Shown one piece after another: positions 6,241 to 19,502 of a stretch of 64,000 nt of DNA. The notes under the pieces were generated by a model. It was not told the origin of the DNA and did no database searches. It saw only the letters and a program-made list of their open reading frames with translations. Source of the DNA: Schmidtea polychroa. Taxonomy: Eukaryota. A program made the position numbers and the translations under genes. The stretch is from contig CM097885.1 of assembly GCA_044892525.1 (NCBI GenBank), positions 19,904,001 to 19,968,000 of the forward strand, given 5' to 3'. Each line of letters opens with the position of its first letter. Position 1 is the stretch's first letter.

Positions 6241-6413
6241 AAAAATAATAATCAACAAAATATATTTAAATTACAAATTTACAATTTTACATTGTCTTTT
6301 TTACAAATGTCGATTGCATTGATTGTTTCTTACAATCTTGGTTTCATTGACAACTAATAATAATAAAAAAATAATAATAATAATAATAATTATTATTATT
6401 ATTACCGAAATGA

Positions 6414-9400
6414 TCAATAATCTTCTCCGTCAAAATTGCCGTCATCATCATATATAAAAGTGTCCCTTATCCGATAATGCCCATATGCCAAACTCTTGTT
6501 TTTCGATTTCCAATACCGCTTGTCATCTCTATTTGTCAGCGCCTTCTTAATGTTTTTTATGCTGTACAATTGATGATTTTTGGATGCAATGTGGAATTGT
6601 GGCACAGAGTAAACCTTATTGTTAAAATAACAATCACGATAGGAATTGTGATCTAAGCCAGTATCTTTCAACGTGACAGATTTTGCTTTAAGAGTTTCTT
6701 TATTACCTAATAAGCTGTAACACTTGGGACGAAGAAACACCCACTCCTTATATCTCAATCCTTTATTCTCGTCTTTGAATTTTCCAATGACGGAATCTAG
6801 TGCTCTACTATATAAAGGATGTTGTGGGTTATAATTAGATGTGTCAAGCAAGGAGTCACGAATCATGGCAGGTAAGAGAATGTCAAGACTACAATGTTTA
6901 ATTTCCAAAAAGAAAGAGTCTGTATCACTAGCTACTATATTAATTTGACAGTTAAACTCATCGCGATATTTTTGCAATTCATTATACTGCAACTGATACA
7001 TTCTCAGTTTAGAAAGATCAAGTACAGTTTGCCCGATGTAGCTGGGCCTATCTAAGCATACAGACTCTTTCCTAAGCAAAACCGAAATCAAATCATCGTC
7101 TATCCTAGTAGATTTCTTAAATGCCGGTTTTGAGGCATATGTGATAAGTTTTTGTGCGGAATTGCACAGTCGTAAGTTAATACGTTTTTTCAAGTTCTCA
7201 ACAGTTTTTCCATACAAACTGTTATTGAGCAACTTGTAATAGTCTTTATCGAGCGGTGTTATGGATGCGGCTCGTAGTTGTGTGTTGGTATCTATGTATT
7301 TCTTGAAGACAGTGCTTTGTGTATACCTAATAGCCCTATGTACCTTGGTAACAACAACACCTAACTGAAGAAAGATTTGGAGAAGTCGCCAATGTAGAAC
7401 ATAGTGTGTTTTCGGATCGTGTGTAAGTAGCAACTTCTCCACTTTAGAAAAAGGTGGGCACATCTTACCAGGAGCTACCGGAAAATCATCTAGTTTGTCA
7501 TGGATAGATTTCGTTATTTTTAAATCTACTTCTATAGTATAGCCATAATCATGTTGATTTAAATCTGCCGTTGTGCACTCAATTAATAATCTCTCTAAAG
7601 CAATGTCATCAGTCACCCATTCAAAACCACCGTCGGGAAGCTTTTGTGATAAAGCCCATCCATACAGGTTGTTGATGTCAATATACAACAACTCTGTATT
7701 TTCATCACTCCTAACAAAATGTTTATTCACAAACGTTATCCCACCTCTAATCCCACCTTCAAAGAAATTATACATTTCCATGTCGGTGAGAAGCTCAATC
7801 GGTTTATCAAGACTTAACAAAGCAGAACTCCAAGAAAGACTGGGGATTCCTAGGAAATTCAAATGCTCAAGCCTATTATGAGCAATACTCTTAGCTCGGA
7901 ATTGCTGAAAAAAGTCAGCCAACAGAAATACGTCTAATTTCAAATAGACCATCATATAATCCAAAAGGGAATTACATGATGTCTCTTGCCAGATTAGTTT
8001 TGCTTTATTGTATTCATCATCGGATACATCACTCCATTTAGGGGGCAATTCTAATGTAGAAATTAATACATCAAGGGAAGTTGCTACATCATAAGGGAAA
8101 ATCCCTTTACTCTTAATAATAGACCCTCTGAACTCAGATTCTGTCAAAGGTAATGTGTTAAGGGTTGAGACAGCATTTTTCAAAGACGAATTTACAAACT
8201 GACAAGAATCTATAAATTTCACAGTCAGGGAATCAATATGCACAAAAAGAGATAAAAATATTTCACTTGTCACCGGTATACAAGAAATACGCCAGGACTT
8301 ATATTTAGCCAAGCCAAATTTGAGGATATGATGGAGATCATACCCTCTCAAATTATGAAAGACTACAGGTAGTGTGTGGTATATTTTCCTGGAAAGATTA
8401 CAAGTGTTGCAAGCAGCACCAAGGAATTGACCGGTAAAGTGATCATGATCCCTGACTGGTTTAACTAATAATTTTTTACACAAATGACAGTTTGTGCTGT
8501 TATTAAAATTAATTTGGTCATTTTCTGTGAATATCATTTTCTTATTTTTATTTTTATAATAATAGGGAGTTACAATCTTTTTAGCGATATCATTAATTTC
8601 TTTTAAAAATTCGTCTATACAAGAAAGGCCTATGAATGATTTATAAAATTTTGCGCCTGTATAATTATTTATACATAAAAGTCCAGCCGAAATGGGTAAA
8701 TGTTTCTGATAATATTTAGAATCTTTAGGAAGGATTGCCTCAAAATCGGCATAAATAACAAAAGGAGGAGTAATCATTTTACTATAGTCTGTAAATTCTA
8801 ATAATGGATCTTTGGGTAGTGTGTACATTGTGGTTCCTAATTGGTTTCGTTCACAAAGACCTTGATGTTTAATAAAACTATCTTCAAATCTGAATCCATT
8901 CAGACATCTAGGACACCACTTACAGTAAATACGAACAGAACTTATTGATGAATTTCGGCAATTAAGAAAGATGTTTAAATCAGATATAGCGACGTAATGG
9001 TAGGTTTTCCGATTCTGTAATAATAACAAATTTAGACAAGTACCTCCTACTATTTTACTGCGATAAATTATATCTATAAAAGGATGTTTCATGATGGGGC
9101 CCGAAATTAACCCAGTTTCGTCGTAACTTAAAACATTAATTGAATAACCTGGGTTTTGTCGTTCAAATTTTGAGATATTTGATAATTTCATTGGCATATC
9201 TGCCGGGTTATGTATCAGATCTGAAAGGTTATAAGAACTAGGCAGATGACGCAATTCATCAGGAGTACTATCATATTTTATAAGAGCCAAAACCGAGTAA
9301 AGGAAACAAAATTCGTCATCATTATTTACATTTATTATACATTTTTTCCTGATTAATGTTTTCGGGGTTTCAATATATTTACGACCACTCAACCTACTAA

Positions 9401-10376
9401 TCTTTGAATATTTTGTCACAATAAAACTAATGTATTCTATTTTGTTGATGGTCCAATTACTTCCCTTTTCATTTATTTTACTAAATTTTTCATTTAAAAG
9501 AGAGATACCATCATCAATAAATGTGTCGCTCCATACACGAGCAGAGTTTGAGATTATGAAAGACTGAAATTCATCATTTTTCTCAAACTCTACTTTAATA
9601 CAAAATTGAATTTTTACTGATTTCATTTTATTTACAATTTCTAACAATTTTTCTATGAGAACGTCAGGAACAGAAATAATTTTACAATTCAAGGAAGATA
9701 TATCCAACTTAACTATTACATGGGAACTATTCAGGTCGGAAACTACGTCGACTATACCACTACCTACTTGGGGTACAACATCACTATTTTCAAATTCACT
9801 ATTTTCAACTTCACTATTTACAACTTCACTATTTACAACTTCACTATTTACAACTTCACTATTTACAACTTCACTATTTACAACTTCACTATTTACAACT
9901 TCACTATTTACAACTTCACTATTTACAACCTCATCGTCGTCATCACTAATGACTATTATTTCTTTCATCTTTTTTGTGGGAATTTCTTTCATCTTTTTTG
10001 TGGGAATTTCTGTGGGAATTTCTAAATGTCTTTTATTACCTATTATTCCTATTAATCTATTGACTGTTTCCATTAATTGTCGATTTTGTATCAACATGGC
10101 ATTAATCATACTTTTGTTGGTGGTCCTATTATTGACTTTTGTTGATGTTTCCATTAATTGTTGATTTTGTAAGTTTTCGGTGTTCCTATTATTAGTTGAT
10201 GATATATATTTTTGATACGCAATTTTGAAAACTGATTTTTTAGAAGACATATATTGGGTTAAATGATTACGATGTTTATCATAAAATTCGGTATATGTCG
10301 ATGTTTCAAGAGTTTGGCATGTAGGACATAACAAGTATGTTACACTTTTATATTCATGACCATAATATTTTTCCAT
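6414..10376 (-). CDS. polB: Protein-primed family B DNA polymerase (pPolB) with endonuclease-VII-like insert
   Basis: 1320 aa. Exo motifs YADFE, HNLRGYDLH, YLKLDV; polymerase motifs YIDINNLYG, KLLNNSLYGK, SDTDS; CHLC...DHDHFTG...ACNTCN insert typical of Polinton PolB; N-terminal EVVNS repeats. The frame stays open ~55 nt upstream to an AG, so an upstream exon is possible. Confidence 0.97.
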   Translation of the reverse strand: MEKYYGHEYKSVTYLLCPTCQTLETSTYTEFYDKHRNHLTQYMSSKKSVFKIAYQKYISSTNNRNTENLQNQQLMETSTKVNNRTTNKSMINAMLIQNRQLMETVNRLIGIIGNKRHLEIPTEIPTKKMKEIPTKKMKEIIVISDDDDEVVNSEVVNSEVVNSEVVNSEVVNSEVVNSEVVNSEVVNSEVENSEFENSDVVPQVGSGIVDVVSDLNSSHVIVKLDISSLNCKIISVPDVLIEKLLEIVNKMKSVKIQFCIKVEFEKNDEFQSFIISNSARVWSDTFIDDGISLLNEKFSKINEKGSNWTINKIEYISFIVTKYSKISRLSGRKYIETPKTLIRKKCIINVNNDDEFCFLYSVLALIKYDSTPDELRHLPSSYNLSDLIHNPADMPMKLSNISKFERQNPGYSINVLSYDETGLISGPIMKHPFIDIIYRSKIVGGTCLNLLLLQNRKTYHYVAISDLNIFLNCRNSSISSVRIYCKWCPRCLNGFRFEDSFIKHQGLCERNQLGTTMYTLPKDPLLEFTDYSKMITPPFVIYADFEAILPKDSKYYQKHLPISAGLLCINNYTGAKFYKSFIGLSCIDEFLKEINDIAKKIVTPYYYKNKNKKMIFTENDQINFNNSTNCHLCKKLLVKPVRDHDHFTGQFLGAACNTCNLSRKIYHTLPVVFHNLRGYDLHHILKFGLAKYKSWRISCIPVTSEIFLSLFVHIDSLTVKFIDSCQFVNSSLKNAVSTLNTLPLTESEFRGSIIKSKGIFPYDVATSLDVLISTLELPPKWSDVSDDEYNKAKLIWQETSCNSLLDYMMVYLKLDVFLLADFFQQFRAKSIAHNRLEHLNFLGIPSLSWSSALLSLDKPIELLTDMEMYNFFEGGIRGGITFVNKHFVRSDENTELLYIDINNLYGWALSQKLPDGGFEWVTDDIALERLLIECTTADLNQHDYGYTIEVDLKITKSIHDKLDDFPVAPGKMCPPFSKVEKLLLTHDPKTHYVLHWRLLQIFLQLGVVVTKVHRAIRYTQSTVFKKYIDTNTQLRAASITPLDKDYYKLLNNSLYGKTVENLKKRINLRLCNSAQKLITYASKPAFKKSTRIDDDLISVLLRKESVCLDRPSYIGQTVLDLSKLRMYQLQYNELQKYRDEFNCQINIVASDTDSFFLEIKHCSLDILLPAMIRDSLLDTSNYNPQHPLYSRALDSVIGKFKDENKGLRYKEWVFLRPKCYSLLGNKETLKAKSVTLKDTGLDHNSYRDCYFNNKVYSVPQFHIASKNHQLYSIKNIKKALTNRDDKRYWKSKNKSLAYGHYRIRDTFIYDDDGNFDGEDY

Positions 10377-18975: not shown

Positions 18976-19161
18976 TTAATATTTATTTAAATATTTAAAT
19001 AACATATACAATAAAACAACTCCTGTTGTGAGTTTAATATAGTTTTTCATTTTTCCTTTGATTTCATCAGTTTCTTTAGCATTGCGGGCGAGTTGATTGA
19101 GTGTATCCCATCCGCCATTATCTTCTATCCATGGACTAAACTTGGATTTGATTATCTAAAA

Positions 19162-19201
<40 letters not shown>

Positions 19202-19502
19202 TTACTTCTAAAGACCACTGATAATAATGTTCTGAGTCATGTTGGCCTTTCGCAATGATTATCTTCATGTAGGTGAACCCTACAATAATTCTTGTCCATT
19301 GCATGTCTTCATCGCAGAGACATTGAAATATATTGTTAAAATAATTCTTCTTTGATTCAAGACAATCCATATCAAGCATGCTCTGGTAGTCGATGTGGTT
19401 GCCTTCAATAATTTGTTCGGTCCGATTGACCAGGAAATTAAGGCTGTCGACTATATTCGCTGTGACTAGTCCATTTAGAATGTTTTCAATAAATTTAAAC
19501 AT
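18976..19502 (-). CDS. Bcl-2 family protein, two exons (19502-19206, 19155-18976), 158 aa
   Basis: BH1-like FQCLCDEDMQWTRIIVGF; after a 50-nt GT-AG intron, BH2 FSPWIEDNGGWDTL and hydrophobic tail YIKLTTGVVLLYMLFKYLNKY*. Confidence 0.88.

Follow-up and report, generated by a model that had tools for sequence, protein, structure and literature searches.

Short GT-AG segments interrupt several genes of a complete Polinton/Maverick (4538..21742; 17,205 bp, AGT...ACT termini) in a stretch of Schmidtea polychroa DNA, and we strongly favour the reading that the host spliceosome removes them, the protease intron having been inherited and the others gained later. The stretch analysed, referred to here as the window, is 64,000 nucleotides long (GCA_044892525.1, contig CM097885.1, positions 19,904,001 to 19,968,000). 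That the protease, integrase and Bcl-2 genes carry real host-type introns is very likely. The position of the protease intron is common to one clade of related elements, and other intron sites are private to single lineages. An earlier note on this DNA had listed six candidates, and their coordinates and GT..AG ends are borne out: 11772-11808 (minus strand, 37 nt), 15073-15144 (minus, 72 nt), 18513-18554 (plus, 42 nt), 19156-19205 (minus, 50 nt), 17355-17395 (plus, 41 nt) and 6354-6405 (minus, 52 nt). Each lies on the sense strand of the adjoining gene. The note had also held that these segments restore reading frames. This is so for the protease, the Bcl-2-like gene and the gene it called "TPKK"; the integrase insert is already in frame, and 6354-6405 and 17355-17395 restore none.

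Protease intron

The protease is the strongest case among the candidates. Its second exon (11429..11771, minus strand) encodes an adenovirus-type cysteine protease (PF00770, E 1.4e-07). The open reading frame (ORF) that holds it has its first methionine only 5 aa from its end, and read from that residue the product is 5 aa long. A 37-nt phase-2 intron in codon 2 (11772..11808, minus) joins it to exon 1 (11809..11843, minus), where an ATG at 11813 is placed as in relatives and a second in-frame ATG, at 11843, comes right after the stop of the major capsid protein (MCP). We compared the element with 80 related loci, 15 of them with a protease match. An intron at the same codon and phase is found in six of the 15 (L005, L007, L010, L014, L018 and L019; 51-61% identical), which make up five families, L018 and L019 being near-identical. 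In all six, an ATG and two more bases are followed by GTAAG, a body rich in AT and an AG that leads into exon 2 in frame. The other nine protease loci (50% identity or less) have an in-frame ATG without such a segment. Intron lengths of 37, 39, 40, 39, 37 and 47 nt cover all three classes modulo 3, with GTAAG and AG kept throughout; exon 2 is stop-free over its first 100 codons in 6/6 sequences, with gaps of one residue only. With lengths free, ends kept and exon 2 intact, the expectation that indels concentrate inside the predicted intron is confirmed for the protease at the level of families.

An 18-row MCP tree groups the window and the six intron-bearing loci in a 10-row clade (100/99) that does not include the intronless L029 and L030. 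The protease intron probably dates back to the common ancestor of this clade; the remaining introns are likely later gains in single lineages. P0134, a database protease at 64% identity, has an unbroken ORF with the N-terminal offset predicted for the spliced product, and may represent either a spliced message or intron loss. In five families the MCP stop precedes the protease ATG by 1, 2, 2, 3 and 7 nt; in the window the two in-frame ATGs lie 0 and 30 nt after the stop. Taken together, the protease segment is almost certainly an intron. The spliced leader ends in an AUG, and this AUG was also considered as the protease start and rejected, being out of frame at the phase-2 acceptor. As a separate observation, the donors at 6405 and 11808 each lie no more than 35 nt from an upstream stop codon (those of the polymerase gene pPolB and of MCP, respectively). 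Distances of up to 35 nt are inside the range usually held safe from nonsense-mediated decay.

Integrase and Bcl-2-like genes

The integrase consists of an rve core in exon 1 (15145..15532, minus; PF00665, E 2.7e-08) and a chromodomain-like end in exon 2 (14447..15072, minus), separated by a 72-nt phase-1 intron (15073..15144, minus) with an ATT microsatellite body. The insert is located within the TDxGxEF motif, and because it is in frame and stop-free it corrupts the protein and not the frame. Read-through would place 24 mostly hydrophobic residues beside an aspartate that we take to be catalytic, and splicing is therefore the likely route. No insert breaks the motif in 112 of 120 proteins, the remaining eight being shorter and unscored, or in any of the 80 related loci; the searches behind these counts favour intronless forms, since the insert site falls within one of the two patterns and the proteins covered were limited to 202-644 aa. 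An empty AG|GT site is present in the nearest integrase relatives, L001-L003, and in ten of the 80 loci overall. An 8-nt direct repeat spans both junctions and largely equals the splice consensus. We conclude that the integrase segment is very probably an intron.

The Bcl-2-like gene is split between exon 1 (19206..19502, minus; PF00452, E 0.013, below the gathering score) and exon 2 (18976..19155, minus), which matches the BH2 region of Bcl-xL (E 3.5e-04). The two halves are in different frames, and the ATT-rich, phase-0 segment of 50 nt between them (19156..19205, minus) accounts for the shift. Here too, we hold with high confidence that the segment is an intron.

Splice signals and the host reference

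The host RTCA gene (27053..37598, minus, ends approximate) served as a reference. It has six short introns (40, 42, 43, 44, 52 and 57 nt) and two long ones (3380 and 5790 nt). The 42-nt intron at 37512-37553, already pointed out in the earlier note, is confirmed, and the short candidates of the element match the six short RTCA introns in size. The host fits the intron peak at 45-85 nt given for Schmidtea in the accessible part of PMC13594981, although several introns in the window, host ones included, are below 45 nt. We scored 2718 GT..AG pairs of 35-75 nt within the element with a host-only splice model, trained on the eight RTCA introns of this one gene. The six candidates rank 2, 3, 6, 10, 19 and 20 of 2718 and fall in the top 8 of 85 low-GC pairs. 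A second model, built from RTCA plus nine introns of relatives, places them at 1, 3, 5, 6, 8 and 11, and is partly circular for the protease because relatives' protease introns were among its training set. The Bcl-2 intron ranks 20 under the host-only model and 1 under the second. GT..AG ends, a host-like donor and a T-rich acceptor are as expected of U2-type introns.

Several points weigh against spliced introns, among them the circularity of the second model and the bias of the integrase searches just described. The number of good-scoring low-GC pairs, at three thresholds, was 38 against 41+/-8 in local shuffles, 27 against 24+/-6 and 18 against 12+/-4. Since these aggregate counts are not above shuffles, splice consensus alone proves no single intron, and every candidate has to be judged on separate evidence. 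Contigs from runs X1, X2, X3 and X7 over 6260-20140, for which the run type was guessed and repeats were skipped, gave no spliced read or contig among the joints listed. A quick integrase tree (40 of the 80 loci plus the window) fails to resolve the clade and leaves L029 and L030 in a 30-row open group. Bcl-2 exon 1 has no relative in the protein collection or the PDB. The integrase insert, being in frame, could in principle be read through. Finally, some oddities of the window copy are decay: the ATPase, MCP and two accessory genes are damaged. Two further results are neutral. None of the 15 contig joints listed, out of 189 and all from X3, lies at a candidate intron, which decides neither way, and a crude intron count across 17 loci was too noisy for telling clades apart. 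The 40,083 assembled contigs of run X3 that were aligned to 6260-20140 revealed many variant copies.

Acidic accessory gene and ORF-based annotation

An acidic accessory gene begins with an ATG micro-exon (18497..18512, plus), followed by a probable phase-1 intron of 42 nt that holds an in-frame stop (18513..18554, plus) and by an exon 2 (18555..18936, plus) encoding a protein of acidic repeats that ends in a Cys-rich part, with a frameshift in the repeat tract of the window copy. The segment joins the micro-exon to an ORF without an early methionine, a link that arises in 2.3% of shuffles (P 0.023), and its donor hexamer, GTTAAT, is also used by the host RTCA intron 27302-30681. We think it probable that this segment is an intron. 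The gene had been described as a "TPKK protein", and this identity does not stand. P0121, the sole real relative, is acidic, and its match to the downstream part is in a different frame. TPKK therefore comes from reading the wrong frame, and it was rejected as the true repeat of the protein. The called start of P0121 is internal, inside the part matching exon 2.

The claim that ORF-only annotation misses or truncates genes of the element proved right in part. The protease and the "TPKK" ORF are mis-started, the latter giving 20 aa from its first methionine. Among the 14 closest proteases in a public ORF-called collection, 13 have wrong N-termini (8 extended, 5 truncated); nine of ten distant protease matches have a clean start at the predicted spliced offset. 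The failure is nonetheless gene-specific, because the capsid proteins, PZ, PW, TBP and two further ORFs are intronless and read correctly.

Polymerase leader and weaker candidates

A 1343-aa ORF, which we take to be pPolB from motifs recognised by eye and from its conservation in relatives, forms the main exon of that gene (6414..10432, minus). It shows family-B polymerase motifs by eye, contains an endonuclease-VII-like insert, and is 47-50% identical to its counterparts in L010 and L014; searches of Pfam, PDB and PHROGs gave no polymerase match. Three phase-1 candidates that the earlier list lacked link an ATG at 11043 to this exon: 10433..10778 (minus, 346 nt), 10821..10864 (minus, 44 nt; rank 4 under the second model and 131 under the host-only model) and 10949..10991 (minus, 43 nt; ranks 2 and 1, respectively). 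The phases of the three leader exons are compatible and none of these exons contains a stop, as happens in 0.3% of shuffles (P 0.003) with splice sites chosen by eye. We lean towards regarding these candidates as introns. The pPolB leader of L014 also has three phase-1 introns (45-53 nt), none of them placed as in the window. Within the pPolB ORF, the endonuclease-VII-like domain lies at about 8390-8520 (minus), with weak Pfam and PHROGs matches. The N-terminal region at 9774-9933 (minus) contains a 15-nt tandem repeat encoding SEVVN-like units; in L014, a leader intron precedes the corresponding segment.

Other candidates are private to relatives. The TBP gene of L004 has a 40-nt intron candidate, the sole one among the loci with a TBP-like gene, and the L014 homologue of the ORF at 17937 has a 43-nt candidate immediately ahead of the part that matches, a site without a counterpart in the window.

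Two of the six segments are less secure. The 52-nt segment at 6354..6405 (minus; host-only rank 6 of 2718) starts 8 nt past the pPolB stop and would lie in the 3' untranslated region (UTR), and as a coding intron it was rejected. In L010 and L014 no GT donor lies equally near the pPolB stop. We are inclined to doubt, though not strongly, that it is an intron. The 41-nt segment at 17355..17395 (plus), after an ATG at 17333, has a strong splice consensus (host-only rank 3). A stop follows 5 codons downstream, and removing the segment restores no frame in what is a broken gene. In L004 the gene after TBP also has an ATG micro-exon and a 40-nt intron, and comparison of the two regions detected no similarity (best E 6.3). 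The chances that 17355-17395 is an intron of a dead gene are about even. For both segments, decay is a plausible reading.

Anatomy of the element and its surroundings

The element is flanked by an identical 6-bp target-site duplication (TSD; left 4532..4537, right 21743..21748, plus strand). Its terminal inverted repeats (TIRs), at 4538..5522 (plus) and 20612..21742 (minus), are about 1 kb and imperfect, with blocks of 83-91% identity. Its ends, AGTAGA...TCTACT, are AG-type and symmetrical, and neither (AGT)2 nor (AG)3 exactly. TIRs, a 6-bp TSD, an rve integrase, an adenovirus-type protease and a double jelly-roll MCP identify it as a Polinton; its integrase, protease and TBP score above Pfam cut-offs.

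The MCP gene (11844..13052, minus) is intronless, and its product is shorter than in relatives near the C-terminus owing to an in-frame loss near 11890. A model of the 402-aa protein has a predicted local distance difference test (pLDDT) score of 74.9, and its double jelly-roll fold matches the capsids of PBCV-1, iridovirus and mavirus (E 1e-10 to 1e-8). It is followed by an intronless PZ-like ORF (13049..13438, minus), presumably PZ from the gene order, and by a probable minor capsid protein (13431..14477, minus), also intronless and named from position and relatives only. An intronless ORF at 15588..16052 (minus) is PW-like. The putative packaging ATPase (16074..16711, minus) belongs to the P-loop families (Pox_A32, E 0.0038, below cut-off) and is conserved in relatives. 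In the window copy it is frameshifted near 16400; we rejected an intron as the cause of this break, which is too short for a host-type intron. On the plus strand, a TBP-like gene (16820..17257) and an accessory ORF (17937..18344) are intronless in the window. A TBP-like gene is also found in seven related loci (L004, L009, L010, L014, L027, L029 and L037). Damage in the window copy thus comprises frameshifts in the ATPase and the acidic accessory gene, a short MCP, and stops in the gene at 17333. A search of viral contigs found no relative, and the integrase and MCP of the window had no identical entry in an exact-sequence collection.

The insertion site is a reading frame (3338-4537 and 21743-21970) that we take to be gag-like, with CCHC motifs. 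A 173-nt direct repeat at 90% identity lies at 3338-3510 and 21798-21970. A host-like gene at 21960-22800 (plus) has short intron candidates, for example at about 22406-22450, and a weak Pfam match only. The two long RTCA introns are 27302-30681 and 30839-36628, and the larger holds a transposase ORF (32122-33225), presumably pogo/Tigger-like. Transposase fragments at 305-1587 (minus) and 23756-24199 (plus) are, we assume, hAT-like. A repeat pair at 41862-42400 and 55446-55980, 13.6 kb apart and 99% identical over 300 nt, possibly marks the ends of another element. Among the relatives, L007:660-1260 holds a dual-specificity-phosphatase-like gene in two frames, L010:225-720 a ubiquitin-conjugating-enzyme-like ORF and L004:1665-2170 a RING-finger-like ORF, all recognised from motifs by eye.

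Origin of the introns and alternative explanations

The history we favour would run as follows. The clade would have resided for long in short-intron hosts, with its genes transcribed by Pol II in the nucleus and their short introns spliced like those of host genes. Introns would be gained at sites of AG|GT type, such as the one present in the closest intronless integrases. ATT slippage may later fill some of the intron bodies, and only introns that the host removes cleanly would be kept. Because only host-removable introns are tolerated, a host-like size needs no benefit to the element. The earlier proposal that the element is adapted to a minimal-intron spliceosome is accordingly not upheld: long residence with intron gain yields the same sizes, and host-like size is no proof of adaptation because any intron kept in a host must fit its spliceosome.

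The introns could instead be selected regulators, with the protease translated by stop-restart on a capsid-protease message after splicing, which would give a low protease-to-capsid ratio or gated maturation. The protease ATG at 0-7 nt from the MCP stop in five families and the window would suit such a device, as would retention of the intron over about 45% protein divergence in elements whose other core genes are mostly intronless. However, genes are closely packed in the intronless L029 and L030 as well, and the uninterrupted P0134, from a close relative, would, if genomic, mean that the intron can be done without. Introns are normally retained for long periods, whether or not they have a function. 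We regard selected regulation as unlikely.

By analogy with protection from HUSH in human cells, the introns may serve as camouflage, making transcripts resemble host mRNA and so lessening silencing. The accessible text of PMC8770142 reports that intron insertion counters the repression of long intronless transgenes in human cells, and the introns of the protease, pPolB and "TPKK" genes lie near 5' ends, in keeping with such a role. Yet the longest core genes, namely MCP, the minor capsid protein and the 4-kb pPolB exon, are intronless, and the system was shown in human cells. This explanation appears improbable.

Still less probable is that the segments arose by decay after insertion, as AT-rich microsatellite insertions or indels that, in a dead copy, have GT and AG at their ends by chance. 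Four genes are damaged in the window copy, ATT repeats make up the segment bodies in the integrase, Bcl-2 and 3' UTR within a window rich in repeats, and aggregate splice-pair counts are not above shuffles, all of which agree with decay. What decay fails to explain is the agreement with five other families in codon, phase and splice signals, a protease ORF without a usable ATG, and the top ranks under the host-only model. An origin from an introner-type transposon, as in the dinoflagellate eupolintoviruses, in which introners occur in 25% of viral elements (PMC12166617, as far as its text was available), is very improbable, because the one repeat that might suggest it, the 8-nt repeat across the integrase junctions, largely equals the splice consensus, junction repeats in 8/9 candidates are 0-2 nt, like those of host introns (0-4 nt), and the intron bodies are mutually unlike by eye apart from low complexity.

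Relation to known systems and significance

Removal by the host spliceosome thus remains the reading we prefer, and it is likely that this Polinton lineage needs host splicing machinery for its protease, integrase and cell-death genes. Adenoviruses, a related group of linear double-stranded DNA viruses with a homologous protease, likewise use the host spliceosome for their late transcripts. Their splicing joins leaders to distant downstream ORFs, whereas the introns in the window are minimal and lie within coding sequence.

Vertebrate Mavericks, in the part of PMC8097293 at hand, resemble the element in their TIRs, 6-bp TSD, AG-type termini and similar modules of integrase, protease, MCP, further ORFs and, on our assignments, pPolB and ATPase. 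Intact copies are defined there by eight intronless ORFs, with no introns in genes. In the window, by contrast, the protease, the integrase and probably pPolB are interrupted, and the ends are AGTAGA rather than (AGT)2 or (AG)3. With an interrupted protease and integrase and a frameshifted ATPase, the window copy does not count as intact under that definition. Nematode Mavericks share the core genes and have intron-bearing cargo, like Bcl-2 here, but the available text of bioRxiv 10.1101/2022.07.12.499685 describes their core genes as intronless, with introns confined to captured cargo. Adintoviruses also carry Bcl2 homologues, and a figure legend on related viruses mentions TBP-like genes (PMC8502044, in part); the text of that paper, supplements excluded, has no passage on spliceosomal introns in the portion available, and uses "intron" once, for group II maturases. 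In the eupolintoviruses of dinoflagellates, from the available portion of PMC12166617, spliceosomal-type introns occur inside Polinton-like proviruses, partly in coding sequence. Those introners are mobile, multi-copy and mostly post-integration, unlike the one apparently inherited position across families, with unrelated bodies, seen here. The accessible parts of PMC10748475, PMC12220804, PMC6431247 and PMC13465017 contain nothing on spliceosomal introns in Polintons. A search that left subscription papers, Repbase, supplements and the 2006 founding paper outside showed no description of a core Polinton gene with an inherited intron. Low GC and Maverick expansion are described for Dugesia in the available text of 10.64898/2025.12.11.693146, and the host, which is AT-rich and has the genes of an animal, fits.

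It is conceivable, if rather unlikely, that an animal Polinton clade ties particle maturation to host splicing, with protease dose set by removal of the codon-2 micro-intron. This may amount to a switch between transposon and virus modes, and introns of 37-47 nt would limit the clade to short-intron hosts. An intron-bearing clade would score as degraded under an intronless-ORF rule, and its activity and capsid-making potential would for that reason be underestimated. The multi-family set, with one common intron and private others, provides a compact natural series for intron gain.

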